Origin: Candidatus Moranbacteria bacterium GW2011_GWC2_40_12
GTDB lineage: Bacteria; Patescibacteriota; Minisyncoccia; Moranbacterales; UBA11712
Assembly: GCA_000995965.1 (NCBI GenBank)
Contig: LBYD01000001.1
Coordinates: forward strand, 279,040-343,039
DNA: 64,000 nucleotides
Reading direction: 5' to 3'
The notes under the pieces are model-generated. The model did not search any database. It was not told the origin of the DNA and was given only the letters and a program-made list of their open reading frames with translations. The translations under genes were made by a program, and so were the position numbers. This document shows positions 4,052 through 61,191 of this stretch, one piece after another; position 1 is the first letter of the stretch; each line of letters begins with the position of its first letter.

Positions 4052-5155
4052 TCAAATTATTGTGCCTCCCCCCAAAACTTCTCCATTTTTATAAAAAACC
4101 GCTGACTGGCCCGCTGTCACCGCCCGAAATGGCCTTTTAGTCTCGACAAGAAGCCTTCCCGACTTGCCTGGTATTATTTTAGCAGATATTCTCGTTGAAT
4201 GGTAGCGAATTTGAACGTCAGCCCGGAACGGCGATTTTTTCTTTTCATTTGTCCAATTGACTTTGCTCACCCAAAATTTCTCTTTGTGCAGCTTTTTCGA
4301 GTCGTTTGTGACAATCAGTTCATTTTTTCGAATATTTTTTCCGATTACCCAATACGGTCCGGTTCCTCCGATTTCGATCCCTTTTCGCTGTCCGATCGTA
4401 AAAATGGGCAAACCTCTATGTCTTCCCAAAACTTTTCCCGCTTCATCAATGATGTTTCCGGTTTCTGATTCAATATTCTTTGAAAAATATTTCATGGCGT
4501 CATTATCCGGCATAAAGCAGATATCTTGCGACTCATTCGTGGCAACCGGCAATTTCATTTCTTTCGCCATTTTTTTTACTTCTGATTTTTTATATCCTCC
4601 CAGCGGAAAAATAATTTTCGACAGATCTTTTTGAGCCAATTTATATAGAAAATACGATTGGTCTTTTGTTTTGTCTTCAGCTTCAAAAAGTCCGGCTTTG
4701 AAAAATTTCGGCGGCTTGCTGGCTGAAAGGCAAAGGCCGGACTTTGATTCACCGGCTAAAATACGCCCGCTTATTTTGGCGTAATGACCGGTTGCCGCAT
4801 AATCCGCCTTTTCTTTCTTCATCAAATCGAAAAGCAGGCAAAATTTCATCTCCTTGTTGCATACGACGCAGGGATTGGGGGTCTGGCCTTTTTTGTACGC
4901 GTTGAGAAAATAATCAATCACCCGCTTTTTGAATTCTTTCCGCGCGTCAATTATTTTCAGCGGAATTCCCAATTTATTCGCGATTTTTTTCACTTGGAAA
5001 CTTAGTTTCCAAGTTTGTTTGGTGAAGACAAAATAAGCACCAATAACTTCGTATCCCTGCTTTTTGAGCAGCGCCGCCGCCACTGCCGAATCCACCCCGC
5101 CGGAAAGGGCGACAACGATTTTTTTATGATTATCTTTTGGTCGCTTGTTCATCAT
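4052..5155 (-). CDS. mnmA: tRNA-specific 2-thiouridylase MnmA
   Basis: PP-loop SGGVDSAVAA, catalytic NPCVVCNKEMKF; contains an in-frame palindromic-element insertion (TWKLSFQV). Confidence 0.9.
   Translation of the reverse strand: MMNKRPKDNHKKIVVALSGGVDSAVAAALLKKQGYEVIGAYFVFTKQTWKLSFQVKKIANKLGIPLKIIDARKEFKKRVIDYFLNAYKKGQTPNPCVVCNKEMKFCLLFDLMKKEKADYAATGHYAKISGRILAGESKSGLCLSASKPPKFFKAGLFEAEDKTKDQSYFLYKLAQKDLSKIIFPLGGYKKSEVKKMAKEMKLPVATNESQDICFMPDNDAMKYFSKNIESETGNIIDEAGKVLGRHRGLPIFTIGQRKGIEIGGTGPYWVIGKNIRKNELIVTNDSKKLHKEKFWVSKVNWTNEKKKSPFRADVQIRYHSTRISAKIIPGKSGRLLVETKRPFRAVTAGQSAVFYKNGEVLGGGTII
4982..5004. repeat. PE-A: 23-nt perfect palindrome ACTTGGAAACT-T/A-AGTTTCCAAGT, copy inserted in-frame in mnmA
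   Basis: identical to the palindromes flanking and inside the RAYT-like gene at 14337-14996. Confidence 0.8.
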
Positions 5156-9222: not shown

Positions 9223-9247
9223 TGCCAGTTTTTGTTTTTAAATTATT

Positions 9248-9340
9248 TGCGAATTACGAATACGCTTCGCTCTACAAATATGCCAATTACGAATATTTTT
9301 TACATTTGTATATTCGTAAAAGATTCATAATCCGTAAAAG
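9248..9340. repeat. about 95-bp TACGAAT/ATTCGTA-rich imperfect palindromic dispersed element (full copy 1)
   Basis: about 93% identical to 61838-61934; partial copies at 18820, 41622, 47796, 51075; fills the whole intergenic space directly 5' of a minus-strand start codon. Confidence 0.7.
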
Positions 9341-10453
9341 TTATCTTAATTTGTATCCGTCCGCTTTTTTTTCAAAGACTTTCCTGTTGGCCAGATTGAC
9401 GGCGATAGTCGCCCTTTTTACTTTTCTTTTCCCAAGAACTTCCTCATAAAGTTTTTCTCTCTTCAGAAAACCGCCAGCCGAATTCAAAAGATTGACGATG
9501 ACATCCTTCACTGTTCCCTCTTCGAAGCCCCACTCGCGCAAGGCATAGGTTCCCCGGCCAACCAGGACGAATCTTTTGTCGCGGATCAGTTCATTGTGAA
9601 CAGTTTGAGGATGGACTTTTTTTCCGCTCAACTTCAATTCTTCAATCAGTTGGCTTATTTCGCGGAAATGGAGCGGTTTTCCTTTCTTCATCAGAACCAG
9701 TGTGGCTTTTTCGCGCACTCCTCGCGGCCGGATGAGCGGCCACCGGGCTTTTCCCCAGTCTCCGAAAACATTTTGTCCGAACTTTTTGGAAATTTCGAGA
9801 AAACTCAGTATATGCTCCGGCTTCATTTCGGAATATTTTTGGGAAAACTCGCTATGATCCAGTTTCTTGAGAACTTCCTCGAGGGTCAATATTTTTTTCC
9901 CCGTGTCGAAGATCATCTCCAATTCATCAACTGCTGCCTTGAAATATTTTTTGTCGAAATCTGGGTGAATCCATGTATCTTCCATTTCCCGATTTGATCT
10001 CGCTTTTTTGATCCCGGTCATGAGAAAAATTACTTCAAGCAATTTGGCTTCCTGCAGTGAAAGTTTTTCATTTCCCGTGTATCTCAAGAAAACGCCGCTC
10101 GCCAGTTTTTCTGCTTTGATGATTCCCCCGTTTTCTTTGATTATATCGTTTACGCAAGCTGAAAGGTTATCGAGGTTACTGACTTTTTCCGTTTTTTTCA
10201 GGGCCTTCACGGCATCTCCTTCGATTTGCCTCACTCTTTCCCTTGTGATATTCAGATTTTTTCCGATAGCCTCGAGTGTTTTTGGCTGTCCGTTTCCAAT
10301 CCCGAAACGGCTGGAAAGAACCAGTTTCTGCTTGGCGCTAAGACTGTCCAAAAGGCTTTCAACGACAGACTTCAAATCTGCTGTTTTTACTGGGATTTTT
10401 TGGGATAAATCCGAATTTTCCCTTGAATTTACCATATTTCTTGAAGCAAACAT
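9341..10453 (-). CDS. sigma-70 region-4 domain protein with C-terminal HARE-HTH domain (atypical sigma-like regulator)
   Basis: LVLSSRFGIG...TLEAIGKNLNITRERVRQIEGDAVKALKK (region 4.2) near N-terminus; C-terminus LHFREISQLIEE...RFVLVGRGTYALREWG (HARE-HTH); annotated ATG at 10501 overlaps the -10 box so start moved to 10453. Confidence 0.6.
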   Translation of the reverse strand: MFASRNMVNSRENSDLSQKIPVKTADLKSVVESLLDSLSAKQKLVLSSRFGIGNGQPKTLEAIGKNLNITRERVRQIEGDAVKALKKTEKVSNLDNLSACVNDIIKENGGIIKAEKLASGVFLRYTGNEKLSLQEAKLLEVIFLMTGIKKARSNREMEDTWIHPDFDKKYFKAAVDELEMIFDTGKKILTLEEVLKKLDHSEFSQKYSEMKPEHILSFLEISKKFGQNVFGDWGKARWPLIRPRGVREKATLVLMKKGKPLHFREISQLIEELKLSGKKVHPQTVHNELIRDKRFVLVGRGTYALREWGFEEGTVKDVIVNLLNSAGGFLKREKLYEEVLGKRKVKRATIAVNLANRKVFEKKADGYKLR

Positions 10454-10607: not shown

Positions 10608-11537
10608 TTAATTTTGCTTATTGGCCTGAAATTTCCACCAATCCACCATCAAAGCCGACGCAACAAATATTGAAGAATAAGTGCCGAAAGTGATTCCGAT
10701 GAGCAGCGCTAACGTGAAGTTTTTTATGGATTCTCCGCCAAAAATAAGAATGGCCAGAAGAGTGATGACAACGGTAAGAGAGGTGTTGATTGACCTGGCC
10801 ATCGTTTCATTGAGGCTTTGATTGACCGTTTCATCAAATGTTTCTCTCGCGCTTCCCCGCAAAAGATTTTCCCGCGTCCGGTCATAGACAACAATCGTGT
10901 CATGAACCGAAAAACCGAGGATTGTGAGAAGGGCCGCGATGAATGTGGTGTCAATCTCGATGTTCCAATAATGGCCGAGGATAGAAAAAATTCCGACCGT
11001 GATGAGAACATCATGCACCAGCGCCGCCACCGCTCCGACTCCGTATTTCCACGACTCAACCGGGCGCGACACTTTCCGAAAGGCGTAAGAGATATACAGC
11101 GCTATGCCGATCACCGCCACAAGTAGCGCCCAAATGGCTTTCTTTTTGAGCTCCGAAGAAATCGAGGGACCGATATAATCAAGGCGGGTATTTTGAACAT
11201 CCGGAAATTTTTCTTTGAGCTTTCCAAGAACCGCTTTGTTTTTTTCGTCGTCAGAATTTCCATAACGAATCAAAAAAGCTCCATTTTGCGCAGGAGTCAC
11301 AACCGCGTCTTCTATGCCAATCTCCTTTAGAGAAGCTTTTATCTCGTCATTTTCTATGTCTAATTTCTCATTTCTTATCTCCATCAGTGTTCCTCCAGTG
11401 AAATCCAATCCGTACCGGAGTCCCCACGCCGAAAGACTAATAATCGAGGAGACTATCAAAGCACCGGATAAAATATAGAAATATTTGCGCTGGCCGATGA
11501 TGTTATACATAAAAAAGTATAATTTATTGCAAATCAA
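10608..11537 (-). CDS. secF: protein-export membrane protein SecF
   Basis: SecF periplasmic and TM signature (GITFGTYSSIFVAS); 4-nt overlap with secD stop. Confidence 0.9.
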   Translation of the reverse strand: MICNKLYFFMYNIIGQRKYFYILSGALIVSSIISLSAWGLRYGLDFTGGTLMEIRNEKLDIENDEIKASLKEIGIEDAVVTPAQNGAFLIRYGNSDDEKNKAVLGKLKEKFPDVQNTRLDYIGPSISSELKKKAIWALLVAVIGIALYISYAFRKVSRPVESWKYGVGAVAALVHDVLITVGIFSILGHYWNIEIDTTFIAALLTILGFSVHDTIVVYDRTRENLLRGSARETFDETVNQSLNETMARSINTSLTVVITLLAILIFGGESIKNFTLALLIGITFGTYSSIFVASALMVDWWKFQANKQN

Positions 11538-13827: not shown

Positions 13828-14313
13828 TTATTTCTTAAGATAATTTAGCAAAAATCTATTTGCTTCCTTGAAAGCATTGCGTGAATTCTTGTATGTAATA
13901 CGCTTGAGGGATTCTTTGTATTCCAGCCAGGAAAAGTTGACGTGTTCAAATGACAATCTCACCTCTTTTTCTTCTGTTTTTGCTAAATAGGCTGTAACTA
14001 TTTTAAAAATGTTTATTCCTCTATTTGACGCCTTTCGTTCTTTTTTCTCATTACCTTTTGCGCGGTAAAAATATTTATACCAAGTATAAAATCCCGGAAT
14101 TATTTCAAATTTTGTAATCCCTGTTTCTTCTTTGACTTCACGGCGCAATGCATCTTCCCATGTTTCTCCTTTTTCAATATGTCCTTTGGGGAAATCCCAA
14201 TGACCCTGAAAGCCATCGCTTTTCGGATGCTGGATTAGTAAATACAATATTTTATTTTTTTCCCTCCGGAACACCACTGCTCCGACTGATTTTTCAAATG
14301 GCATACTCTCCAC
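13828..14313 (-). CDS. NUDIX hydrolase
   Basis: Nudix box GHIEKGETWEDALRREVKEETGI. Confidence 0.85.
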   Translation of the reverse strand: MESMPFEKSVGAVVFRREKNKILYLLIQHPKSDGFQGHWDFPKGHIEKGETWEDALRREVKEETGITKFEIIPGFYTWYKYFYRAKGNEKKERKASNRGINIFKIVTAYLAKTEEKEVRLSFEHVNFSWLEYKESLKRITYKNSRNAFKEANRFLLNYLKK

Positions 14314-14334
14314 TTGGAAACTTAGTTTCCAAGT
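14312..14334. repeat. PE-A palindrome copy at the 3' flank of RAYT-1
   Basis: ACTTGGAAACTTAGTTTCCAAGT, ends 3 nt before the RAYT-1 stop. Confidence 0.85.
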
Positions 14335-14336
14335 CG

Positions 14337-14996
14337 TTATTCGATTATTAATTTTTCCATCTCCTTTTTGTCTTTTATAGAAACCAGCGATTCTTCCGCA
14401 AATTTTCGATAATCTTCCCCATTTTTGAAATCATCCAAAATCACGCGTTTTTCTCCGCAAAACGTCTTTTCTGAAAAATTATCCGTATATTCCCTCCAAC
14501 TTGAAATCGACTTGGAAACTAAGTTTCCAAGTGAATGGACACGGTCATTGAGATTCACGTAGGCGCTTAAGTGCAACAGATAGCTGTTTGTTTTTATATG
14601 GACTGCTTTGAATGTTCCCTGGAAAAGAGAACCAGAGCGCTCGTGCCTCTTGTTGAAATATTTTGTATAACCTATTCCGAGACGGTGCATGAATTTCTCA
14701 ATGCCCTGCTCGGCTGTCTGTTTGAGAATGAAATGATAGTGGTTAGGATTCAGGCAAAAACACACGAAACCGACCAATTTCTTTTTGGATTTGTTCTTTT
14801 CTTTTCTGTCGCGAAAAAAATTTTCATATATGCTTCCGATCGGATCAAGCGTATTGAATTCATCCATACTCTGAAGAAATCTCCGCATATCCAATTGATC
14901 ACTGAAAATTTCCCGCTTGTCCACTCCGCGATTGAAAATGTGGTAATATTCGCCTTCAGCCAATTGTATTTTTCTCATAGCTGGATTATAGCACAA
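14337..14996 (-). CDS. IS200/IS605-family Y1 (HuH) transposase, REP-associated tyrosine transposase-like (RAYT-1)
   Basis: EYYHIFNRG..., HuH motif NHYHFIL, conserved Y in YLLHLSAYVNLN, SGSLFQGTFK; flanked by PE-A palindromes on both sides and contains one in-frame. Confidence 0.8.
   Translation of the reverse strand: MCYNPAMRKIQLAEGEYYHIFNRGVDKREIFSDQLDMRRFLQSMDEFNTLDPIGSIYENFFRDRKEKNKSKKKLVGFVCFCLNPNHYHFILKQTAEQGIEKFMHRLGIGYTKYFNKRHERSGSLFQGTFKAVHIKTNSYLLHLSAYVNLNDRVHSLGNLVSKSISSWREYTDNFSEKTFCGEKRVILDDFKNGEDYRKFAEESLVSIKDKKEMEKLIIE
14510..14532. repeat. PE-A palindrome copy inside RAYT-1 coding sequence (in-frame, encodes LGNLVSKS)
   Basis: ACTTGGAAACTAAGTTTCCAAGT. Confidence 0.85.
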
Positions 14997-15004
14997 AACA
15001 ATCC

Positions 15005-15027
15005 ACTTGGAAACTAAGTTTCCAAGT
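15005..15027. repeat. PE-A palindrome copy at the 5' flank of RAYT-1
   Basis: ACTTGGAAACTAAGTTTCCAAGT, 9 nt upstream of the RAYT-1 start. Confidence 0.85.
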
Positions 15028-15120
15028 CAAATAAGATAAAAAAAACAGGCCCGTCGAGCTCTCTTCCCCCTCCGGAGAAAAGAATCACTCAACGAGCCTT
15101 GATGGTACACAGGTAATGCG

Positions 15121-15840
15121 TTACTTAAGCAGTTTTTTTTCGCCGGAGTCGAAGGCCTCGCCCACACCGATGCTACCCACCGCGCTGACGGCGCCAACGG
15201 CAACCGCCATTTCCGGAACTGTCATGCCCAGGACCGGTGCCACAATACCGGTTGACGCGGCAACGGGCGGAATCATGGTGCCCGCCATTTCTGCCATTTG
15301 GGCAATGGGGCCGCGCTGTTTGGCCCGTTCTCCCAGCCAGTTAAGCTTGGTGGGATCGTAGTATTCCGTTTTACCAGTAAAACCGGTCAGGAATTCGGTG
15401 ATCACACCCACGGGATGATAGAGCAGCTGACTCTTGGCCGTGTTGACTGCCCGACACGCCTGGGATATGGGAGTCTCGAACTTTGATTTTGTGACATAAT
15501 TAAACCCTTCTCCCAGGGCCATGAGGCCGGTGCCAACAGTCATAAAAGGTGCGAGGATGAGGGTTTTGATCGGACTGGGCAACCCGCGATCTGCACTCGC
15601 CACTGGAATCGCCGCAGACTGGGCCTCAGCCCGCCGCTCCAGATCCTGCCGTCTTAGGGAGTACCTCAAATCGATCACGGTTTTTTCCGCCGCGGCCCGC
15701 TGGTCAGCCGCCAGACTCTTCGCCCTGGCCGCCGCCATCTTGGCGTCCAGCTCGGGGAACATCCCCGCTCCGACCGTCCCGGCGCACAGAAAGACCATTG
15801 CCATCATCATTACCATCATAAACCCCAAGTACCGTTTCAT
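15121..15840 (-). CDS. hypothetical secreted/membrane protein within the GC-rich island
   Basis: SD GGGAGGAAG before ATG at 15840; N-terminal signal-like MKRYLGFMMVMMMAMVFLCAG; about 60% GC. Confidence 0.5.
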   Translation of the reverse strand: MKRYLGFMMVMMMAMVFLCAGTVGAGMFPELDAKMAAARAKSLAADQRAAAEKTVIDLRYSLRRQDLERRAEAQSAAIPVASADRGLPSPIKTLILAPFMTVGTGLMALGEGFNYVTKSKFETPISQACRAVNTAKSQLLYHPVGVITEFLTGFTGKTEYYDPTKLNWLGERAKQRGPIAQMAEMAGTMIPPVAASTGIVAPVLGMTVPEMAVAVGAVSAVGSIGVGEAFDSGEKKLLK

Positions 15841-16109
15841 AGCCACTTCCTCCCTTTTTGCCTTTCGGCAGAAAATTCCCTCTCGATGAGAGGGGCCAAA
15901 CAATTTTCAAATAATGCTGCTATGGATAAAAATTAACATCTGCAAAAATCCTGTCAATGGGGAAAATTTATCAAAAAACAAAATTGACACTCTGTAAAAA
16001 ATGTTTACTTAAAAGATTTTTCTTATATTCCGATGGACAAAAAGGATATCCTAAGCGTAGAATAGAATAAAGGAAATTTTTCTCAATAAAATCTAAGGAG
16101 GTGCGCTCA

Positions 16110-16973
16110 ATGAAGCGCGAAAGCGAACTTTTTTTACTGGCAATTATTTTGGTGACAATTGCCTTTTCGGCAGGCTGCGTCGGACCCATCCATGAGATGG
16201 AAAAAAGCGGATTAGTCCAGCTTCAAACCGCAGCTCCTATCTCTGCTCGGCCGGGAGGAAAGTATGTCTACGTTAACTGCCGCGACGGGACGGGCAATAA
16301 TCTCGACATCCAGAATCGAGTCATTTCCTTGATTCGCTCGCGGGGATATATTTCCGTCAGCGACCCGAAGTTGGCTGACTACCAGCTCACTGGCGGTCCT
16401 AATTCCATCAGTTATCAGCAAGACCGTTCTCGGACGACCGGCGGGGGACAAGCTATTGGAGCGCTTATGCTGGGTGCTTTGGCCGGAGGACTTGTTGGGG
16501 GATTTACGGGAAATGCCGGCCTTGCAACCGCTGCTGCCATCGGCGGAGCAGCCGCGGGAGCAGCTATTGGAGGAACTGCGGAAGCCCACGCTGCGCCGGG
16601 AATTGTCATTGCTTCGGTAAACATCCGGATTGATGAACGGATCAATTTTTTGAGCGAAAGACAAGCCAAACTGCCCCAACCTATCCAAAAAGTCCGGAAA
16701 GTGAAAAAAACTCTGAAGTCCGGAAAAAAAGTATGGGTGACAGAGGACATCACTGAAACCGAAGACGCTGAAACTCCGGTGAAATCCACCGTTGCTGCGG
16801 CTCAATCCGGCGCTGGTGCTACCACAGTAGTCACTGATCGCCGGGTGGCTGATTTTGTTCCTCATCAGGCGACTTTCGAGGTCAAGCATGTAGTGGAATC
16901 TTCCACGCCGGCTGACCAAATAAAAAATCTGCTGGCGGAAAAAATCGCCGCTGCCATTGCCAACATTCTCTAG
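16110..16973 (+). CDS. traT: TraT-like outer-membrane lipoprotein (complement-resistance / surface-exclusion family)
   Basis: lipobox LVTIAFSAGC; Gly/Ala-rich central segment; C-terminus ...AEKIAAAIANIL closely resembles TraT C-terminus (...LAKSIANIL); SD AAGGAGG 7 nt upstream; about 58% GC. Confidence 0.75.
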   Translation: MKRESELFLLAIILVTIAFSAGCVGPIHEMEKSGLVQLQTAAPISARPGGKYVYVNCRDGTGNNLDIQNRVISLIRSRGYISVSDPKLADYQLTGGPNSISYQQDRSRTTGGGQAIGALMLGALAGGLVGGFTGNAGLATAAAIGGAAAGAAIGGTAEAHAAPGIVIASVNIRIDERINFLSERQAKLPQPIQKVRKVKKTLKSGKKVWVTEDITETEDAETPVKSTVAAAQSGAGATTVVTDRRVADFVPHQATFEVKHVVESSTPADQIKNLLAEKIAAAIANIL

Positions 16974-17004
16974 GCCGAATCTGACGACCAAGAGACAGGA
17001 ACGG

Positions 17005-18819: not shown

Positions 18820-18885
18820 TATTTCTTTACGAATTTATTGTATTCGTATATTCGTAATAGATTCGTAATTCGTAAAATAATCATA
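18820..18885. repeat. partial copy of the TACGAAT-rich element, directly 5' of polX
   Basis: ctttacgaatttattgtattcgtatattcgtaatagattcgtaattcgtaaaa. Confidence 0.6.
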
Positions 18886-23850: not shown

Positions 23851-23857
23851 AGCCCTT

Positions 23858-23878
23858 CGTAGGTGTCGGACACCTACG
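23858..23878. repeat. PE-B: 21-nt perfect palindrome CGTAGGTGTC-G/C-GACACCTACG at 3' flank of RAYT-2
   Basis: distinct from PE-A; located between P-type ATPase start and RAYT-2 stop. Confidence 0.85.
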
Positions 23879-23880
23879 AT

Positions 23881-24528
23881 TTATTCTAGTAAATATTTCT
23901 CCCTTTCCTTTTTCTCTTTCATATACAAAGAATTTTCTTTTATAAATTCTCGATATTCATTCTTATTTTTAAATTCATTAAGAATAACACCTGTGTCACA
24001 AATCCCCCCGTTTCTTTTCCCAGTATAATCTAAAAAACTGGAATATGGCCAGTCAAAATCGTCACCGTATCCATGAATAAAATAGTTTTTGTTAACATAG
24101 GCTGATAAATAAAGAAGATGTGCGTTTGTCCTTATACGGATCGATTTAAATTTCCCCTGAAACAATACTCCGGATCTTTTGTAATGATAGTTGAAATAAT
24201 TTGTATAACCGCCTCCGAGCCTTTTCATATATTCAGAAATTCCATGTTCTGTTGATTGTTTTAAGATCAAGTGAAAATGATTCGGATTAAGACAATAACA
24301 TATGATTTCAACTAATTTTTCCATTCGTAGGTGTCCGACACCTACGTCTTGCTTTCTTTCTTGCTGACTGTGCCTATACAAGCTATGGATAGGATCAATT
24401 TGGTTAAATTCTTTCATGGACGTTAAAAATCGATTATAGTCTCTGTTGGATAAAAAAACTTTCCGTTTTTCAACGCCACGGTTATAAATGTGGTAATATT
24501 CATTGACATCTAGGGGTTGTTTTCTCAT
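23881..24528 (-). CDS. IS200/IS605-family Y1 transposase, RAYT-like (RAYT-2), paralog of 14337-14996
   Basis: EYYHIYNRG, NHFHLIL (HuH), YLLYLSAYVNKN, SGVLFQGKFK; own palindrome PE-B on both flanks and in-frame (VGVGHLR). Confidence 0.8.
   Translation of the reverse strand: MRKQPLDVNEYYHIYNRGVEKRKVFLSNRDYNRFLTSMKEFNQIDPIHSLYRHSQQERKQDVGVGHLRMEKLVEIICYCLNPNHFHLILKQSTEHGISEYMKRLGGGYTNYFNYHYKRSGVLFQGKFKSIRIRTNAHLLYLSAYVNKNYFIHGYGDDFDWPYSSFLDYTGKRNGGICDTGVILNEFKNKNEYREFIKENSLYMKEKKEREKYLLE
24326..24346. repeat. PE-B palindrome copy inside RAYT-2 coding sequence (in-frame)
   Basis: CGTAGGTGTCCGACACCTACG. Confidence 0.85.
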
Positions 24529-24534
24529 AAACCT

Positions 24535-24552
24535 TAGGTGTCGAACACCTAC
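24535..24552. repeat. degenerate PE-B copy at the 5' flank of RAYT-2
   Basis: TAGGTGTCGAACACCTAC (one mismatch in loop). Confidence 0.7.
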
Positions 24553-25209: not shown

Positions 25210-25248
25210 TTAGAGCTTCGCTAAAGTTGAACCTTAGCGAGAATAGAA

Positions 25249-25276
25249 AGAGCGGATATTTCCGCTCTTTTTCTTT
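25249..25276 (+). terminator. intrinsic terminator downstream of the PilX-like gene
   Basis: AGAGCGGATATTTCCGCTCT + TTTTCTTTATTTT. Confidence 0.5.
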
Positions 25277-25642
25277 ATTTTATAACATAACTCGACCCAA
25301 CATTAACCATTCCTAAAGTTGAACTTTAGGAAGAGAGGATATCTCGTGGATATTGTCAGTTATTGATTGATGTCAAATCACTATCATACGATAGTAAAAC
25401 AAAAAGCTAAAAAAGGAATCGAAAAATTTTAGAGTTTTGCTAAGGTTCGACCTTAGCAAAGGCAGGAATTGGAAATTTTTTTATATTTCCTTCCTTCCCT
25501 CAATTGCGCCGGTGAGTAACCATTCCTAAAGTTTAACTTAAGGAAGTCAAAAAGAACGAGTCCACAGCTCGTTCTTTGAATATTATCCAAAAATTTGTTA
25601 TCCTAAGGCTTCCTAACATCCGATGTTAGAAAATAGAAAACT

Positions 25643-25674
25643 CACCGCTTTCGAGCGGTGGGTTTTTCTTTTGC
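25643..25674. terminator. bidirectional intrinsic terminator (serves htrA on minus strand)
   Basis: CACCGCTTTCGAGCGGTG flanked by A-rich (5') and T-rich (3') runs. Confidence 0.45.
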
Positions 25675-25747
25675 GGATTCTTTTGTAACCCTTACCAACA
25701 TTGAATGTTGGTAAGATGTTGGTAAGAAAAAAAGCGGTTTAGTTTTT

Positions 25748-25768
25748 GTAGGTGTCCGACACACCTAT
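25748..25768. repeat. degenerate PE-B copy just 3' of htrA
   Basis: GTAGGTGTCCGACACACCTAT. Confidence 0.6.
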
Positions 25769-25773
25769 GAGTT

Positions 25774-27045: not shown

Positions 27046-27170
27046 AATGAGAAATAATAAATTAAAAATAAAATAGAAGAAATAAATATCAGAAAGAGGA
27101 AAATTTCAAGAAACACAAAAAAGCATTTCTAATTTCTGCTATTTATTTCTTCTCTCTCATATCTTATGTC

Positions 27171-27353
27171 TTATTTCTCTAGTGATATCGCGTTCACCGG
27201 GCAGCTGGACACCACTTCACTGCAATCACAATCTTGGCAAGAATCCGCAATCACACTCGATTTTCCGTTCTCAACCTTAAAGGTTTTCGGGCACAGTGCC
27301 TCGCACGTCCCGCATCCGATACACAATTCTGTGTTTACTTTGGGTTTTGACAT
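27171..27353 (-). CDS. small 4Fe-4S ferredoxin
   Basis: CIGCGTCEALCP plus second Cys cluster CQDCDC...SCP; directly downstream of the por operon. Confidence 0.7.
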   Translation of the reverse strand: MSKPKVNTELCIGCGTCEALCPKTFKVENGKSSVIADSCQDCDCSEVVSSCPVNAISLEK

Positions 27354-32707: not shown

Positions 32708-33670
32708 TTAAATTTTGAATTTTATTCTCTGTAGAATGAAATATGCAGCAGAAAAGATTGCGATAAAAACCATCTTTCCGATCGCGTTTAAATTCAGTGC
32801 CGCAAGCCCAACAATCATGCCAAAAACACATACCAATACCACGATCTGCTTTTCGCCTAGTCCCAATTTTAGCAGTTTGTGATGAAGATGTCGACTGTCC
32901 CCGCCTGAAAATATGGATCCGCCGGCATGATGCCTTTCCCATATCACACTCACCAGATCCAAAACTGGTATAAGTGTTACCATGAAAACTGTCGCTATTT
33001 TTGCTCCCGCAAATATGGACAGGCTGGCAAGGAGAAACCCAAAAAACCAGGCGCCAGATGTCCCGGCTATGATTTTTGCCGGATGCCAGTTGAAAACCAA
33101 GAAAGCCAAAACTGCCCCAGCAGCGGTTGCGCACAAAATTGCCGCCGCCGGCTGATTGACATGCGGCAAGAGGCTCAAAAAAAATATCTCGGCCAGTGCC
33201 ACGAATGTCACGCTTCCCGAAAGACCGTCAATTCCGTCAAGCCAATTCAATGCATTAATAAAGAGCAAAAAGTATAACGTGTAAATAAAAATGTATACGG
33301 CAGGATTTTCGAGATTTATGGTTCCACCGAAAGGATTTGCCGTATATCCGCTCCGCACACCAAATAATATCGCTGTGATCGCTATTATAACTTGAAATGC
33401 CAACTGCCATTTCCAATTTAGATTTTTTATATCATCCCACAACCCAAAAATCAGAATCAACAGTCCACCGGTAATAATCCCCGCAATCGGTTTCGTGATG
33501 ACCAAGTCTTTATCGTATAGTACGAATAAAATGAAAATTACAATCACAACTAAACCTCCCAACCTCTTTTTAAGGTTCGGCCTTAAAAATGGCGTCCGCA
33601 GCAAAAAAAATATCGCGATGATCGATAATAAAAAAGAAAATAGAAATGGGAGAAGAAATTTTGCCGCCAC
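32708..33670 (-). CDS. glycosyltransferase family 4 polyprenyl-phosphate hexose-1-phosphate transferase (WecA/MraY superfamily)
   Basis: IFGLWDDIKNL, NALNWLDGIDGL, 10 or more TM. Confidence 0.85.
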   Translation of the reverse strand: MAAKFLLPFLFSFLLSIIAIFFLLRTPFLRPNLKKRLGGLVVIVIFILFVLYDKDLVITKPIAGIITGGLLILIFGLWDDIKNLNWKWQLAFQVIIAITAILFGVRSGYTANPFGGTINLENPAVYIFIYTLYFLLFINALNWLDGIDGLSGSVTFVALAEIFFLSLLPHVNQPAAAILCATAAGAVLAFLVFNWHPAKIIAGTSGAWFFGFLLASLSIFAGAKIATVFMVTLIPVLDLVSVIWERHHAGGSIFSGGDSRHLHHKLLKLGLGEKQIVVLVCVFGMIVGLAALNLNAIGKMVFIAIFSAAYFILQRIKFKI

Positions 33671-33757: not shown

Positions 33758-35461
33758 CTAATCTTTTTTTCTCACCTTCTCCGTCACCCAGAATTCACCG
33801 AAGTATTTGCCGAGAAGGATCCGGGTCTGGGAATCGACAGCCGGAGCGGCCCCGAGGAATGGCGCGGTGATGGGGACCAAAAACCACTGAAGAAACATAT
33901 ATATATAGCGTTTTCGGCCGTACCGGGCGGGACGCGGCGGAAGAAGCATCAGGCTCAAAAACATCGAGATGACCAGGCCGATAAGTGCCGCGTTCATCAG
34001 GTATCTCGTGAAATAAGGCAGGTTATGGGCCAGAACGCTTCGGTTAAATTCCGGACCGCCAATGATAACCGGCAGCCAACCAAGGAGCGCGATAATGAAA
34101 GAGTTGGTTGCCCAAGACCAATGGCCTTCAAGCATCGTGAAAAGATGTTTTGCTTTTTTCATCGGCCGGATTTTTTTGTTTCTCCAAAAAGCGCGGGCGA
34201 GCAGAGGAAAATTCTCAATTCCGTAGGCCCAGCGCCGTTTTTGCTTATACTGGTTGACAATTGTTTTCCAATAAGTGTTCGCCAAAACCGCGTCGAGTGA
34301 CACCGGGAGGTAAATTGGCTTTACTTCATAATCTCCGCTAAAAAACGTATAGCACTTCCAAAAAATGACGCTGTCCTCGGAAATCATGTTCACCGGCCAA
34401 TAATCAACGTCAACGATCGTTTTAAAAGCCTCCGAATGCGAAGAAAACGTCACCATATGCTCCGGCCGCATCGCCTCCACCATGTGCCAAAAGCTTGAAC
34501 CGGTGACGATGATTCTCACAAAGGCGTTTGTGTCCCAAATATTGTTGTGATACATCGGCAGAGGCTGGTAGGCAAAATTGAGCCGCCTCGGTTCAGTGGC
34601 GTATTTCAGGGTGAGAGCCGCAAAATATTGGGGATGGGCGCAGGTATCACAATCAAAATTGGAAAGAACGACGCGTTCGAGCGGAATATTTTTTTCTTCC
34701 AGATATTCTTTAAGCTTTTTTGCGGCAAAGGTGGTGTTGGACGCTTTGGCTCTCATCTCTCCCGGAGCCACTTCGTGAACCGTCACCAAAAAATCAAAAA
34801 ATGTTTTACCGAATTTATTTCTTAGATAGTTAATTTTGTGCTCCCTTTTCTTTTTGTCCTCCCGCTCTTCGGTCGCGAGAAGAATGATAAATTTTTCGTT
34901 AGGATAGTCAGATTCAGCGACAGCCTGAATGGCCGGCTCGATGATTTCCGGTCCTTCGTTAGCAGTCGGAAGCATTACTACGTGATAGATATCTTCCCAA
35001 CGCAAAAATTTTGACCTGTCGCGCCTTGAGATTTCCAGAATTTCCTTTTTGATCTCCTTCACAGCGCACAATTTCTTTTTGGATGACTTTTTTTCTGCTG
35101 AAAACAATTTCCAGCGTTTCTTGGAAAAATCCTCTTTCGCCCGCCGATAGTTTTCTTCCGTTTCTTTGAGAAAGTCGTCTATATCAGACATTTTCCGGCA
35201 TGCCTGCATCCAGTCAATCGCTTTGTGGCACTGCATTTTCCGGAAAGCGACGATTGAATATGTCGAGATATAAAGGGTGCGGAAAAGCCAGTATATGTCG
35301 AAGGCTATTATAAAAACCGCTACCCAAACAGGAAGCCAGAAAGAAAAAACAAACATGCCAAGAATCGTGAACCAGGCCAGCGACCCGGGAATAATTTCAA
35401 ATATTCTTTGTAAGCGACGTTCACGAGGATCGGTTGTGCGGGGATCGGGATAGGAAAACAT
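33758..35461 (-). CDS. integral-membrane processive family-2 glycosyltransferase (cellulose-synthase-like)
   Basis: DCDT and QYKQKRRWAYG (QxxRW) motifs; TM clusters at both ends. Confidence 0.7.
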   Translation of the reverse strand: MFSYPDPRTTDPRERRLQRIFEIIPGSLAWFTILGMFVFSFWLPVWVAVFIIAFDIYWLFRTLYISTYSIVAFRKMQCHKAIDWMQACRKMSDIDDFLKETEENYRRAKEDFSKKRWKLFSAEKKSSKKKLCAVKEIKKEILEISRRDRSKFLRWEDIYHVVMLPTANEGPEIIEPAIQAVAESDYPNEKFIILLATEEREDKKKREHKINYLRNKFGKTFFDFLVTVHEVAPGEMRAKASNTTFAAKKLKEYLEEKNIPLERVVLSNFDCDTCAHPQYFAALTLKYATEPRRLNFAYQPLPMYHNNIWDTNAFVRIIVTGSSFWHMVEAMRPEHMVTFSSHSEAFKTIVDVDYWPVNMISEDSVIFWKCYTFFSGDYEVKPIYLPVSLDAVLANTYWKTIVNQYKQKRRWAYGIENFPLLARAFWRNKKIRPMKKAKHLFTMLEGHWSWATNSFIIALLGWLPVIIGGPEFNRSVLAHNLPYFTRYLMNAALIGLVISMFLSLMLLPPRPARYGRKRYIYMFLQWFLVPITAPFLGAAPAVDSQTRILLGKYFGEFWVTEKVRKKD

Positions 35462-35548
35462 ATGAGATATAAAAAATAAGAAATAAGAAAGTTGAAAAGA
35501 GGAAAGCTAATAAAAATAATTTCTTTTCTCTTATTTCTTATATCTTAT

Positions 35549-41621: not shown

Positions 41622-41665
41622 GATATTCTTTACGAATTACGAATCAGTTACGAATATACGAATTT
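41622..41665. repeat. partial TACGAAT-rich element directly 5' of rplJ
   Basis: ttctttacgaattacgaatcagttacgaatatacgaattttt. Confidence 0.55.
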
Positions 41666-41896
41666 TTATAAAAAATAAAAAGCCCGCTATATCCACAGGC
41701 CCAGAAAAAAACAATAAAAACTGTAATTTCCTCGTTGGGACTTAATCCGCTAGCTGGCGGAGCCCAATTTCTGCGGAAAATGATTATTTAACTGACAAAA
41801 TACATTATATATGGCCCAAATAATATGTCAAGGCCACCCTCCATATTCGATCAGATATTCTAGTACTTTAGCGAATTAAAATGTATGTTTAATAAA

Positions 41897-44651: not shown

Positions 44652-44759
44652 CATGAGATTCACCTCCTTTTGATTTGAAATCATAAAAGCTTAGCATAAA
44701 GAAAAGCTTTGTCAATATCGTTGATATTTTATATCTTCTCTCTTATTTCTTACATCCCT

Positions 44760-45203: not shown

Positions 45204-45258
45204 TTTGATATAAGATATTAAAAATAAGATAGAAGAAATAAATATTAGAAATAATAAA

Positions 45259-45657
45259 TTATTTTTTTCCTCTTAACGTTAACAAGCTTGACCCAAATAT
45301 CTTAGAATACTCATCTAATTCCTTCAGAAACCATTCGACACTTTCGGGTTTCACTCTTTTACTGTCCCGCAAAAGCGCAAACCACAATTTACTTTCATTA
45401 TTCGACTTATAGGAATGATTGAAAAAATTAGTGAAGTCTTTTTTACTACTGGCACATTGCCCCTCCACAAAATTTGCAATAATACTCGTGCCACTTCTTA
45501 ATAATTGATCACCAATTCTTTTCGAAACATTGTCATTTGGGAGTTTATCAATAAATTCGATAAGTTTCAATGTAAAAATATAAAGCCTCTTTTTAAAATC
45601 ATTTCTTAATACTTCTTTCTCATCTTTCATTTTTATTTCTTCTTTTTTATATCTCAT
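45259..45657 (-). CDS. four-helix-bundle protein (bAvd / 23S rRNA IVS protein family)
   Basis: ...SIIANFVEGQCASSKKDFTNFFNHSYKS... matches TIGR02436-type four-helix bundle. Confidence 0.65.
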   Translation of the reverse strand: MRYKKEEIKMKDEKEVLRNDFKKRLYIFTLKLIEFIDKLPNDNVSKRIGDQLLRSGTSIIANFVEGQCASSKKDFTNFFNHSYKSNNESKLWFALLRDSKRVKPESVEWFLKELDEYSKIFGSSLLTLRGKK

Positions 45658-45665
45658 TTCTTATT

Positions 45666-47417
45666 TCACCAGCTTCCTCCGCCTCCGCCACCGAATCCAC
45701 CGCCACCTCCCCCTCCGGAAAAACCGGAACCGCCGCCGGATGCTGAAGATGGCTGGCTGGCCATGGCCGTCCCGGCTGTATTCGAAAAATCATTTATCAG
45801 GCTTGATAAAATTATAGCATTGAAAGCCCGCCCAGACGAATCCTCGTACCAGTCCGGCTGCTGGTTGTATATTCCTTCAAATTGCTTCGCCCATTCTTTT
45901 TCAACCCCAAGAACCATCGCGTAGGGTAGAAATCTTTCGAACATCTGGGGATTTTTCTCGGGCGCGTTATGAAATTTCAACCGATCCGTTTCCGTGACAG
46001 AGAGAAAATCCTTGAATCCCAGAATATTTTCCTTGATCCCGGCGCCTTTTTTGGTCACCGCCGGCATCAGCCAGCCAAAGATTGCTATGATTATCGTCGA
46101 GACAATCCCGCTAAACACTCCCCATCCTCCCTGAAGATTGCCGAAAATCACTGTGAGGAATACTCCGCCGATTATCCCGCCAATAAGCCAACCAGCTCTC
46201 GTACTATTCGGATTTGAAACATAATATCCTTTTTCTGTGATGCCCTTATAAAGCTGGTCTTTTACCGCCGCGAGGGTTTTGAAAAATTTGTTTTTGAGAT
46301 CCGATAATTTCTTTTCTTTATCCCCATTGAAGATTCCCTTCATCACTTCTTTTTCAAAATCCCGCGTCGGCTCTTCATCCTTGATTTTAATAAACGTATA
46401 ATCCTTGCTTTTCGTCCCGAAAAATCCCTTTTCCTCCGTGCGTTTGATTTTCAAGAATTTGTTGACAGCCAGATCAATGATTGTCGAAGAAACATCCTTG
46501 TTGTCCGCCGAACCATCCATCATTGTTCCGATTTCCGCCGGCGCGAGCTTGTCCGGCGGTTCATATTGCGCGATGATTGTCCCCCGCCCTTTCGGGTCAC
46601 GGCCCTTTTTGCTCCAAAGGCGATACATAAAGACAAAAACAATGATTGGAAAAAATAGCGTCCAGTTATCGCGCGCGATATCCATAATTTTTACCCTAGA
46701 GCTCAGCTCTAGGGTAATTCCTTTCGGCCAGCCGGCGACAATCGTCATCCCTTCGCCGGGATTGATTATTCCCGTTGATTTATATTCTAAAATATTTCCG
46801 CTCGCGCTTGCCACGCATTCATTCGTGGTCCCAAAAACTCCTTCAAAGCATTTGTACTGCAAATTTTCTATGGCGTTTTCTGGAAGAATAATTTTGAGCG
46901 CTGCGCTCTCAATGGGGACTGGCCATTTGTCGCCCGTGAAGTTCCAATAAAGCTCATCGTGATCTGGGAAAAAATTCACCGCCCGACGAATTACGTAACT
47001 AATTACGTAATTCTTCGTCCCGCTGACGTATTTGTCCGCGTCGCCGATTTGAAATTTTATATTCTCGCCCTCGTAATCCGTGGTGAAATTATACGGCGCG
47101 CCGTTTTCGTCCGTGATTTTCATGTTCGAAACCCGCAAATTATAATTCCCTCCCCGCGCTTTGTATTTCACCGGAATGAACCGGAAAATTCCGTGCTTCT
47201 GCTGGTCGCCAAAGTCATAAGCGATAGTCTCTTTTACATCAATCGTGCTGTCTGAGTTTATTCGGATATCGCCGATGAAATTTATGATTTTCTCGGTGCT
47301 AGGATAACTTTGTGCAAAAGATGAATTTAAGGAAAATATAAGAAATAAGAAACAAGAAATAAGAAAAATTGGAAATTTTTTATTTCTTCTATTTATTTTT
47401 TCTATTTTATTTCTCAT
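45666..47417 (-). CDS. DUF2207-like membrane protein (large extracytoplasmic N-domain, C-terminal TM pair, Gly-rich tail)
   Basis: signal peptide, ...GGGSGFSGGGGGGGFGGGGGGSW tail; carries in-frame PE-C palindrome (TLELSSRV). Confidence 0.65.
   Translation of the reverse strand: MRNKIEKINRRNKKFPIFLISCFLFLIFSLNSSFAQSYPSTEKIINFIGDIRINSDSTIDVKETIAYDFGDQQKHGIFRFIPVKYKARGGNYNLRVSNMKITDENGAPYNFTTDYEGENIKFQIGDADKYVSGTKNYVISYVIRRAVNFFPDHDELYWNFTGDKWPVPIESAALKIILPENAIENLQYKCFEGVFGTTNECVASASGNILEYKSTGIINPGEGMTIVAGWPKGITLELSSRVKIMDIARDNWTLFFPIIVFVFMYRLWSKKGRDPKGRGTIIAQYEPPDKLAPAEIGTMMDGSADNKDVSSTIIDLAVNKFLKIKRTEEKGFFGTKSKDYTFIKIKDEEPTRDFEKEVMKGIFNGDKEKKLSDLKNKFFKTLAAVKDQLYKGITEKGYYVSNPNSTRAGWLIGGIIGGVFLTVIFGNLQGGWGVFSGIVSTIIIAIFGWLMPAVTKKGAGIKENILGFKDFLSVTETDRLKFHNAPEKNPQMFERFLPYAMVLGVEKEWAKQFEGIYNQQPDWYEDSSGRAFNAIILSSLINDFSNTAGTAMASQPSSASGGGSGFSGGGGGGGFGGGGGGSW
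46691..46717. repeat. PE-C: palindrome TTACCCTAGAGCT-C-AGCTCTAGGGTAA in-frame in DUF2207 gene
   Basis: identical 25-nt core also inside secA at 55354-55378. Confidence 0.8.
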
Positions 47418-47429
47418 TTCTTATATTGA

Positions 47430-47795
47430 TTAGAATCTCGCGTTTTCATCAACTACCATTTTTTTCTTGAGCGAGCGGCCGCCGCGGCGGCGGAGGGTCG
47501 TGATTTTGTCCTTGTCCCTTTCAATTTGCGATTCCAGGCTTTCATAGACACTGTCTATTGAACCCTCGACTGACACAGTTGTATCTTCCCCCCGATATTT
47601 TTGATAAGGCGTTTGAAGCATCACTTCCACACGGAATTTTCCTTTTTTGTCGAGATTTATTTCCACTTCGGCCGAAATTTCAGCGTCTTTGCGAAAAGAC
47701 TCGAAGAATTTTCCAAGTTTCTCGACTTTTTCCCTGACATAACTTTCTGTCCTCCCGTCAATTTTGACCTCCTTGAAAAGAAATCTGATATTCAT
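47430..47795 (-). CDS. hpf: ribosome hibernation promoting factor (HPF/RaiA)
   Basis: sigma-54 modulation protein fold; KFFESFRKD...VEVML. Confidence 0.85.
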   Translation of the reverse strand: MNIRFLFKEVKIDGRTESYVREKVEKLGKFFESFRKDAEISAEVEINLDKKGKFRVEVMLQTPYQKYRGEDTTVSVEGSIDSVYESLESQIERDKDKITTLRRRGGRSLKKKMVVDENARF

Positions 47796-47920
47796 GAATT
47801 CTTTACTAATTACGAATTAAATACGAATATACGAATTTTAAATGAAGAATGCTTACACAATGATAATACGCTCTACATTACACATTATTCGTACATTCGT
47901 AAAGATTCGTAATTCGTAAA
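47796..47920. repeat. variant copy of the TACGAAT-rich element between smc stop and hpf start
   Basis: ttactaattacgaattaaatacgaatatacgaa...atacgctctaca...ttcgtacattcgtaaagattcgtaattcgtaaag. Confidence 0.6.
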
Positions 47921-60465: not shown

Positions 60466-60611
60466 TTCATTAAAAATAAAATCTTCCGCATAGGAAGATA
60501 AGAAATTTATATCTTTCCCTTGCGGGCTAGAGGTAGCACCACGTCTAATAAAAATTAGATTGGTTGCTGGCAGGTCGCAGGGCTAGTTCCCTCGCTGCGC
60601 TCTTGATACTC
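60466..60611 (-). promoter_or_regulatory. SAM-I (S-box) riboswitch with terminator expression platform in the metK leader
   Basis: minus-strand AUCAAGAG-CGCAGCGAGGGAACUAGCCCUGCGACCUGCCAGCAACC...GGUGCUACCUCUAGCCCGCAAGGGAAAGAUA matches SAM-I core; followed by AUCUUCCUAUGCGGAAGAU + UUUAUUUUU just before ATG. Confidence 0.7.
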
Positions 60612-60699
60612 GCCCCGACCTTAATGCGTCGGGGCTTTATTCAATTTTCGAAAGATATATGTATTATAGCGTTTTATATATTCGAGTCAAGGACAATAG

Positions 60700-60772
60700 T
60701 GGACCCGAGGGGATTCGAACCCCTCGCCTCCTCGGTGCAAACGAGGCGCTCTACCAAATGAGCTACGGGCCC
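60700..60772 (-). tRNA. tRNA-Ala (anticodon UGC)
   Basis: cloverleaf folds; G3:U70 identity pair; anticodon loop UUUGCAC. Confidence 0.85.
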
Positions 60773-60789
60773 AAATATACAGTTTATCT

Positions 60790-60860
60790 TGTAAGGCTGT
60801 AAAACAAAAAAGGCGCTCGGACCCTGTCCGCCTTTGGCGGAAAATGAGCTACGGGCCCGC
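60790..60860. repeat. element upstream of tRNA-Ala: conserved hairpin (GGCGCUCGGACCCUGUCCGCC) plus direct copy of the first 20 nt of tRNA-Ala
   Basis: aaaatgagctacgggcccgc at 60841-60860 duplicates tRNA 5' end (60753-60772). Confidence 0.6.
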
Positions 60861-60877
60861 AAACCTAGTTCAAGATG

Positions 60878-60990
60878 CAAAAATCAAAATGAAAAATTTT
60901 GGTGTTCGCTTCGCTCACTTATTTTTAAAAAATAATCATCGCGAAGCGATACATTAATTTTGCACTTTTAATTTTGAATTTTCAATTTAT
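60878..60990. repeat. about 110-bp dispersed repeat with inverted TCGCTTCGC/GCGAAGCGA arms (copy 1)
   Basis: about 85% identical to 63068-63175. Confidence 0.7.
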
Positions 60991-60994
60991 TATG

Positions 60995-61068
60995 TGGGCG
61001 ATCGAGGATTCGAACCTCGGACCTCGTCATTATCAGTGACGCGCTCTAACCAACTGAGCTAATCGCCC
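60995..61068 (-). tRNA. tRNA-Ile (anticodon GAU)
   Basis: cloverleaf folds; anticodon loop CUGAUAA. Confidence 0.85.
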
Positions 61069-61118
61069 AAAGTTTGTTTCTTGCTACGTAGTTTGTTACG
61101 TAACGAGGTAAGTAAATG

Positions 61119-61191
61119 TGGGTCGTGCAGGGATCGAACCTGCGACCATCAGCTTAAAAGGCTGCTGCTCTACCAACTGAGCTAACGACCC
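61119..61191 (-). tRNA. tRNA-Lys (anticodon UUU)
   Basis: cloverleaf folds; anticodon loop CUUUUAA. Confidence 0.85.

Follow-up and report, generated by a model that had tools for sequence, protein, structure and literature searches.

Known REP-RAYT systems and a probably related locus in CPR bacteria

RAYTs (REP-associated tyrosine transposases) are Y1/HUH enzymes whose genes are flanked by cognate palindromes, the repetitive extragenic palindromes (REPs). The classic systems, also called REPtrons, are proteobacterial and include E. coli TnpA-REP (YafM) with its REP/BIME sequences and the Pseudomonas RAYTs with their REPINs. E. coli TnpA-REP reads the stem base together with a conserved tag and cuts at CT, which may lie on either flank of the hairpin and at differing distances from it (PMC3479197). 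The IS200/IS605 insertion sequences (ISs), represented by the TnpA proteins of IS608 and ISDra2, carry out HUH/Tyr chemistry on single-stranded DNA, and subterminal hairpins flank their small gene. Here we describe a Y1/HUH transposase-like gene, RAYT1, that is bounded by a 23-nucleotide (nt) palindrome and also contains it. The gene lies in a 64-kb stretch of contig LBYD01000001.1 of Candidatus Moranbacteria bacterium GW2011_GWC2_40_12 (the window below), a member of the candidate phyla radiation (CPR, Patescibacteria). The initial annotation knew of no description of a REP-RAYT-REP arrangement in such bacteria. Our literature search agrees, as it found no description of REP/RAYT in CPR bacteria, nor of REPs inside rayt genes.

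We consider this locus, with a probability of about 75%, to be a REP-RAYT-type system native to CPR/Patescibacteria, in which RAYT1 is paired with a short DNA hairpin. Several properties are shared with the proteobacterial systems. A Y1/HUH enzyme is flanked by its palindromes, one copy of each type is present (here seen within the window), the gene is inherited vertically under purifying selection, hairpin and enzyme co-evolve, and hairpins are dispersed over the genome. Other properties set the locus apart. Hairpin copies lie inside the open reading frame (ORF) of the enzyme itself at two fixed in-frame positions on the protein surface, and 55% of the solitary copies are intragenic, whereas REPs are extragenic. 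Classical REPs number in the hundreds, as opposed to about 4-18 exact copies per assembly among those with several hits. The repeat is a perfect, symmetric palindrome of 21-25 nt without the GTAG tag of REPs, although the hairpin of a paralog, RAYT2, does begin with GTAG. No REPIN doublets occur here, and the host is a CPR bacterium.

A transposase-like gene bounded by its own hairpin

The palindrome ACTTGGAAACT(W)AGTTTCCAAGT is perfect over its 23 nt and occurs four times in the window against an expectation of 0. No copy appeared in 100 dinucleotide shuffles of the window, and a search of the window that allowed up to 3 mismatches found no further copies. Three identical palindromes around and inside the gene had been reported earlier; exact matching recovers all of them, one upstream (UP), one downstream (DOWN) and one in frame within RAYT1, and adds a fourth inside mnmA (Table 1). 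The central W is the sole variable base of the window copies and marks their orientation, and the UP and DOWN hairpins have opposite central bases. As single-stranded DNA, the 23-mer folds stably into a stem of 10-11 bp, with a free energy (dG) of -8.5 to -8.7 kcal/mol (-8.7 for the UP copy) and a z-score of -5 to -6. Rfam gave no match at the hairpin sites. The DOWN hairpin lies 2 nt past the RAYT1 stop codon, not 3 as first reported, and 8 nt ahead of the ATG of a Nudix gene. The UP hairpin is 26 nt from the RAYT1 ATG and 8 nt from the mechanical TTG start. Flanking by the palindrome is therefore borne out, with these corrected distances.

An ORF at 14337-14996 had been recognized at the outset. 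The ORF is real and runs on the minus strand, and its start moves to a conserved ATG at 14978 (MRKIQ..., common to all homologs), giving a protein of 213 amino acids. A profile search places the protein above the cut-off of Pfam PF01797, Y1_Tnp (30 bits against 23, E 6.3e-7, residues 68-148). The residues H80, H82 and Y140 are invariant in 55 homologs. RAYT1 is 100% identical to a protein labelled 'Transposase' of Candidatus Moranbacteria GW2011_GWC1_45_18. An AlphaFold (AF2) model built from the homolog alignment, with a mean predicted local distance difference test (pLDDT) score of 83 and a predicted template modelling (pTM) score of 0.83, has a predicted beta-strand at residues 80-87 and a predicted helix at 131-142. 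The top match of this model in the PDB is 4er8, the E. coli TnpA-REP/RAYT with bound REP, and the IS608/ISDra2 TnpA proteins (2vjv) come next. The sequence profile of the RAYT1 family does not reach the solved structures (4er8), and only the fold search links them.

The gene lies between an ORF of Gly-zipper type and the Nudix gene, and three further assemblies of Moranbacteria type have it at the same place, with 69-79% DNA identity in the neighbouring genes. Same-site orthologs include those of C12_metabat.bin.94 and locus L153. Compared with the syntenic ortholog of C12_metabat.bin.94, the nonsynonymous divergence (dN) is 0.043 and the synonymous divergence (dS) is 1.01 (dN/dS ~0.04). Strong purifying selection together with synteny indicates that RAYT1 is a conserved, functional and vertically inherited gene rather than a multi-copy IS.

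These observations bear on the rival view that the cassette is an autonomous IS200/IS605-type IS that moves as a unit, the solitary hairpins being solo ends or miniature derivatives. The layout is indeed IS200-like: a small Y1 gene has a subterminal hairpin at either end, and the left one overlaps the promoter. The window and L153 have the cassette, and L151 lacks it at that site. Near map/ruvX, the cassettes of L066 and L067 are placed differently, and in L004 part of a second cassette adjoins a complete one. However, no near-identical second copy was found. The window's two paralogs share 48% identity and have different hairpins, and no such copy occurs among the loci of one metagenome-assembled genome (MAG). 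Synteny of the gene holds in at least three genomes, dN/dS is ~0.04, and no tnpB stands next to any cassette examined. The protein has RAYT-like extensions (213 residues as opposed to ~130-150), and its best structural match is a RAYT and not IS608 TnpA. Moreover, IS200/IS605 elements exist in several near-identical copies, often with a tnpB partner, and have distinct, imperfect left and right ends and a defined tetranucleotide target, whereas the hairpins here are identical and perfect, and no such target is seen. We therefore regard the IS explanation as improbable.

Fixed hairpin positions and covariation across the family

A survey of the family covered 86 distinct related loci, in which the hairpins have the form CTTGG-N4-N3-N4-CCAAG. 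The foot of the hairpin is invariant, (C)ACTTGG...CCAAGT(G), and encloses a variable inner stem of 4 bp and a 3-nt loop. Hairpins are found at four positions. The UP position, 15-30 nt ahead of the ATG, is occupied in 59/85 loci, and the DOWN position, 0-28 nt past the stop codon, in 50/82. Within the gene, an in-frame hairpin is present at site A, in the linker before the HUH strand, in 33/86 loci, and at site B, directly after the catalytic-Tyr helix, in 47/86. At least two positions are occupied in 62 of the 86 loci, and 66 of the 86 genes carry hairpins among these four positions. The claim that the gene is bounded by its own hairpin thus extends to most of the related loci, with covariation as described below.

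All internal copies (80/80) are in frame 0. Among the best 120 homologs (57-100% identity), the two internal positions encode LG-x-x-x-(S/A/P)-K peptides. The peptides at sites A and B are usually alike within one protein and different between proteins. In RAYT1, the site B copy starts ten residues after Tyr140, directly past the catalytic-Tyr helix. Its site A linker, a low-confidence loop in the model, is empty, the hairpin having been lost or decayed, and by alignment L022, L043 and L012 carry hairpins at this place. The internal copy had been interpreted as an eight-codon insert. Comparison across the family does not support an insert that orthologs lack, since site B is a fixed position of the whole family and has the same length as the unrelated residues found there in paralogs. 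On its own, a copy at a fixed family position is no demonstration that the element inserts into coding sequence. Conceivably, the foot of the hairpin (CTT GGN, Leu-Gly) arose from the conserved motif beside the catalytic Tyr.

Pairs of hairpins from one locus have the same inner stem in 173/198 cases (87%), as opposed to 126/1891 (7%) for pairs from different loci, and 22 inner-stem variants were found. With one hairpin taken per locus, 96.4% of the cells are paired, 77 cells are changed on both sides against 23.8 in shuffles (0/500), and the covariation score is 0.43 compared with 0.06-0.09 in slid controls. The near absence of G-T pairs fits a DNA palindrome. A structure that acts only as RNA is unlikely, given the scarcity of wobble pairs and the presence of copies in both orientations. 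Stem variants are common to genes with at least 82% protein identity, switch at around 80%, and recur among genes that are ~50% identical. Loop orientation is not fixed (~50:50); UP and DOWN have the same orientation in 18 pairs and a flipped one in 17, as opposed to the inverted orientation of classical RAYT flanks. Loop flipping was considered as a sign of strand-swapped pasting, and this idea was dropped since minute inversions mediated by the stem explain it without an enzyme.

Template switching, by which the arms stay complementary, minute inversions, by which loops flip, and replication slippage between repeats are established for short inverted repeats. Such palindrome dynamics might act here independently of any enzyme, the link to the Y1 gene being incidental. 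They would account for compensatory stem changes, for the even loop orientation and for precise loss of the stretch from site A to site B. They cannot bring one and the same 21-25-nt sequence to unlinked sites, cannot explain a hairpin at the same four positions in 66 of 86 genes of one family, and cannot explain the resident variant in copies kilobases away. As a complete explanation, an enzyme-free origin is very improbable.

Copies away from the gene

C12_metabat.bin.94 has all four window copies at orthologous sites, unchanged but for the central base. In Yes70-22 the mnmA copy is identical as well, and an identical 23-mer is present at mnmA in the syntenic loci L009 and L044. The flanks in C12_metabat.bin.94 and Yes70-22 are 70-82% identical, with saturated synonymous sites. 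MnmA orthologs at 59-65% identity have the identical peptide (TWKLSFQ) at the same spot, where orthologs at 58-69% identity carry TWK-xx-FQV. The identity of the window host protein as MnmA was confirmed against solved MnmA structures.

Copies at a distance follow the variant of the resident gene. In L153, a CGA loop is common to the UP and DOWN hairpins and to the mnmA copy, which is 8 kb away. Among copies located more than 200 nt from the gene, 11 of 15 have the stem variant of the resident gene, as opposed to a chance expectation of 6.8%. In L151, RAYT is absent from the syntenic site, yet mnmA carries a perfect hairpin variant with compensated changes (AAATC-G-GATTT). In L152, which likewise lacks RAYT at the site, the hairpins are degenerate: a half-hairpin is left there, and the mnmA copy has 4 mismatches.

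A genome scan for exact 23-mer matches in species-representative assemblies found 65 loci; these belong to 24 assemblies, of which almost all bear a Patescibacteria label. Two related MAGs have 14 and 18 exact copies. Genome-wide counting, proposed initially as a check on the repeat, thus finds the 23-mer over-represented and dispersed (4 in the window against 0; 65 loci in 24 assemblies). An assembly or adapter artefact is ruled out by the many independent assemblies and by copies in conserved ORFs. A DNA-uptake sequence or a restriction-type site is ruled out because copies are few and closely tied to a single gene family. Several MAGs that carry the CPR hairpin are labelled Gammaproteobacteria, Paludibacter or Bdellovibrionales (L003, L006, L015, L027, L063 in CAZXPA01, L052 in CAZCIU01 and L056 in CAZHTL01), and the pheT of L056 is 70% DNA-identical to the pheT of a Moraniibacteriota MAG. 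The labels or the contig binning of these MAGs look doubtful.

Of the solitary copies, 37/67 (55%) lie well inside ORFs of at least 120 amino acids, as opposed to 74% for random positions. Intragenic copies use three open frames, which encode LETKFPS, LGNLVSK and TWKLSFQ. The host genes are intact housekeeping genes and encode PGK, DnaX, DinB, TopA, a MiaB-like protein, ArgS, PheT, TGT, a prepilin peptidase and MnmA, the last with copies at three different positions. Relative to solved homologs, DnaX has a clean gain of 8 residues (compared with the E. coli protein), PGK and TGT have 3 additional residues each, and the MnmA copy lies in a loop that is shorter than in the reference. The proposal that the element inserts into coding DNA still holds, though on other grounds. 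The copy inside RAYT1 is no proof of it, and the argument now rests on the solitary copies, more than half of which are in frame in housekeeping genes, and on the DnaX gain. We had also considered that hairpins only overwrite and never insert, and this statement was softened because of DnaX.

Short in-frame palindromic repeats, many of them in replication, repair and tRNA-related genes, are known from intragenic REPs reported in other phyla (Di Nocera et al. 2013, PMC3733652) and from Rickettsia palindromic elements (RPEs). Genes of these kinds host the copies found here too. Those reports do not include repeats in the transposase gene itself, fixed positions or concerted switching of variants. 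RPEs are ~100-150 bp long and have no linked enzyme, whereas the unit here is 23 nt and mostly intragenic.

The exact size of the mobile unit was considered at 15, 19, 21, 23, 24 and 25 nt. A few loci have tandem forms of 19+23 nt, and the flanks have a C/G preference; neither fits any single size decisively. The flanks also extend the palindrome with locus-specific sequence, by at least 3 additional pairs in 27% of copies against 1.6% expected. In L014, a 206-residue ORF at ~2448 contains two hairpin-coded peptides, PHLETKFPSEGE and PHLETKFPSGEE, ~50 residues apart, apparently through an intragenic duplication of the hairpin and part of its flank.

Some of these properties would suit hairpins that are host elements under selection, with a role in transcription, RNA stability or protein binding, the Y1 protein being a domesticated hairpin-binding factor that no longer mobilizes them. 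Orthologous copies are conserved save for the central base while their flanks are 70-80% identical and dS is ~1, the UP hairpin resembles a terminator and shares sequence with the promoter, many intergenic copies cap the longer locus-specific stems just described, and the copy number is low. Nevertheless, more than half of the copies lie in essential coding sequence in three reading frames, which is hard to fit to one regulatory role. The joint switching of within-locus and unlinked copies requires transfer between copies, and the catalytic residues are invariant. This explanation is unlikely in our view.

Core-deleted genes

At the site in L066 that is orthologous to the gene of L067, there is an ORF of 123 residues in which a single in-frame hairpin stands between the N-terminal part (85% identical) and the C-terminal part (70% identical). 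Exactly the HUH-Tyr core, from site A to site B, has been lost, and the UP and DOWN hairpins and the promoter are kept. Two more mini genes (P0247 and P0275) have the same architecture with other hairpin variants. The presence of different variants in the three mini genes indicates that core deletion is recurrent and independent. The mini genes might be recent wrecks or might be retained, for instance as regulators that bind hairpins. Other cassette remnants are found in L004, as the second-cassette fragment mentioned above, and in the window. The natural reaction of IS200/IS605 enzymes is hairpin-to-hairpin excision, and its products would be just such core-deleted mini genes.

A possible mechanism and the points against it

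In the REP-RAYT-type system that we favour, RAYT1 would bind the hairpin extruded on single-stranded DNA by reading its conserved foot, and would cut and rejoin DNA beside it. Occasional copy-and-paste or hairpin-to-hairpin joining would spread the hairpin. Such joining would also overwrite old copies with the current variant and delete the DNA between two hairpins. Catalysis of hairpin movement by RAYT1 and the positions of cleavage are suggested by analogy with E. coli TnpA-REP and IS608 TnpA. The foot CACTTGG contains CT, the dinucleotide at which TnpA-REP cuts (PMC3479197). Cutting of this kind would produce units of variable length, and in genes only the frame-preserving ones would survive.

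Several points weigh against this reading. The first concerns the enzyme. The initial annotation had identified it as a RAYT, and the Y1/HUH part of that identification stands on the Pfam match and on the fold. Strict RAYT membership does not, since the NCBIfam equivalog NF047646 (REP_Tyr_transpos) scores only 23.2 bits with a cut-off of 80. The motifs specific to RAYTs (Nunvar 2010, PMC2817692), which are NP(L/V)(R/K)xG beside the Tyr and a conserved Thr close to the N-terminus, are absent as such on inspection of the family alignment. The RAYT1 family has YHI(F/Y)NRG without an invariant Thr and Y140-V-N-L-N144-x-K-V-H148-x-L-G151 without the Pro; to judge from the alignment, N144 and G151 may be remnants of the RAYT motif. 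The second concerns movement. A unit of 23 or 19 nt would shift the reading frame, and classical REPs are far more numerous than the copies here. No clean filled/empty ortholog pairs were found for MnmA, L037/L039, L055/L081, L053/L056 or the RAYT paralogs, and there is no net length change at the copies in MnmA, the RAYT paralogs and L037/L039. Both loop flipping and deletions between repeats of 21-27 nt can arise without an enzyme. The third concerns conservation. Orthologous copies stay identical despite saturated synonymous sites, which is more than a selfish repeat needs, and this persistence could mean that the hairpins serve the host. As the scan used exact matches, conservation among the retrieved loci is partly ascertained.

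A more specific version of the system is conceivable, and we put it forward only tentatively, as a possibility that is rather doubtful at present. The enzyme would carry its own substrate in its reading frame, giving feedback on its own gene. Joining of one internal hairpin to another would remove the HUH-Tyr core and act as a self-limiting switch, with the recurrent genes of 120-123 residues as its products, and hairpins would be overwritten in a frame-neutral manner. In-place overwriting without a change in length or frame would explain the joint switching of variants and the perfect copies amid saturated synonymous sites.

Promoter and neighbouring genes

The promoter-like site of RAYT1 has 10/12 consensus matches plus the TG extension, an assignment made by consensus match alone. 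The ATG is only 7 nt past the -10 box, so the mRNA is probably leaderless. On the minus strand, the UP hairpin, which overlaps this site, also scored as terminator-like. By binding the UP hairpin, the enzyme could autoregulate a short operon, as the Nudix gene (ATG ~14304) appears from the sequence to be co-transcribed with RAYT1. It has a GGAG ribosome-binding site between the DOWN hairpin and its start, and no promoter of its own was detected in the window. Where the cassette is missing, in L151, a TG-extended -10 box belongs to the Nudix gene itself. On the other side of RAYT1, G+C-rich ORFs of Gly/Ala-rich, membrane type (15100-17000) directly border the cassette, and the syntenic ORF in L151 has Gly-zipper domains.

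Table 1. Coordinates of RAYT1, its hairpins and related features. Positions refer to the window unless a locus is given.
Feature	Position	Strand	Details
UP hairpin	15005-15027		central A; exact palindrome; right arm forms the -35 box of the RAYT1 promoter
Promoter-like site	14985-15013	minus	-35 TTTCCA (15013-15008), 17-nt spacer, TG-extended -10 TATAAT (14990-14985)
RAYT1 gene, stop codon included	14337-14978	minus	213 amino acids, Y1/HUH transposase-like; Pfam Y1_Tnp
Site A linker, R56-K67	14778-14813	minus	RDRKEKNKSKKK; no hairpin
HUH motif, H80-Y-H82	14733-14741	minus	invariant in homologs
Catalytic Tyr140	14559-14561	minus	invariant in homologs
Internal hairpin, site B	14510-14532		central A; in frame; encodes L150-G-N-L-V-S-K156 (LGNLVSK)
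DOWN hairpin	14312-14334		central T; exact palindrome; between RAYT1 stop and Nudix ATG
Dispersed copy in mnmA	4992-5014		central T; in frame (ORF 4052-5155, minus strand); peptide TWKLSFQ
RAYT2	23881-24528	minus	paralog, 48% identical to RAYT1; module 23857-24551 with own hairpins
RAYT2 hairpin past stop	23857-23879		GTAG-type; 1 nt past stop
RAYT2 hairpin, site A	24326-24346		in frame; peptide DVGVGHLR
Degenerate RAYT2-type copies	24535-24551; 25747-25770		first one 6 nt ahead of ATG
Mini-RAYT ORF	L066 5595-5966		120-123 amino acids (all three mini-RAYT ORFs); intact, with promoter and flanking hairpins
Mini-RAYT ORF	L149 748-1119		as above
Mini-RAYT ORF	L150 511-873		as above

Other hairpin families and repeats in the window

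The layout of gene and hairpin is repeated in distant Y1 clades, represented by RAYT2, L038b and L094b, with unrelated hairpins of their own. The palindrome of RAYT2 is TCGTAGGTGTC(S)GACACCTACGA. Close to RAYT2, the region 25212-25715 contains a cluster of hairpins of the type CTAA(A/G)GTT-NNN-AAC(C/T)TTAG (at 25215, 25310, 25436, 25523 and 25691) and, within it, a 29-codon fragment of a Y1 HUH region on the plus strand (25343-25429). From its sequence, this region looks like a decayed third cassette in which the hairpins have outlived the gene. A hairpin related to this cluster, TTTTTAAGGTTCGGCCTTAAAAA, lies in frame in a 324-residue ORF (33567-33589). A fourth hairpin family, ACCCTAGAGCTCAGCTCTAGGGT, is present at 46691-46717 and 55356-55378, in frame (TLELSSRV) in minus-strand ORFs of ~584 and ~885 residues; no Y1 gene is adjacent to these copies within the window.

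Two further groups of repeats were observed. Repeats of the TTACGAAT/ATTCGTAA type, up to 93% identical over 58 nt, are located at 9243-9347, 18835-18885, 41625-41666, 47798-47839, 47903-47920 and 61838-61941. Pyrimidine-rich TTTCTTATTTCT repeats, some with purine-rich neighbours, are located at 11337-11387, 27051-27197, 35454-35544, 44731-44756, 45207-45672 and 47324-47433. The window also contains an S-adenosylmethionine (SAM) riboswitch on the minus strand (60506-60612; 47 bits, just above the gathering score), which is adjoined by a minus-strand cluster of tRNA-Ala, tRNA-Ile and tRNA-Lys (60699-61191).

Significance

To our knowledge, the creation, spread and maintenance of REPs by RAYTs have never been shown in vivo. 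The family described here is a set of natural experiments that can be read, with more than 20 concerted variants, fixed copies within the gene, unlinked copies that follow the resident variant, and precise core deletions. Each of these features predicts specifics of the cleavage and joining reaction. We have not found earlier descriptions of fixed in-frame hairpins in a rayt ORF, of concerted switching with unlinked intragenic copies, or of recurrent self-deletion of the core. If the self-limiting and overwriting interpretation were true, the family would provide a natural system for site-specific, frame-neutral replacement of short DNA patches. Streamlined CPR genomes tolerate, and apparently preserve, hairpins of the mobile-element type in essential genes such as dnaX, topA, pgk and those of aminoacyl-tRNA synthetases. 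This is relevant to gene calling, to the alignment of CPR protein families, and to whether such repeats are parasites or have been co-opted.

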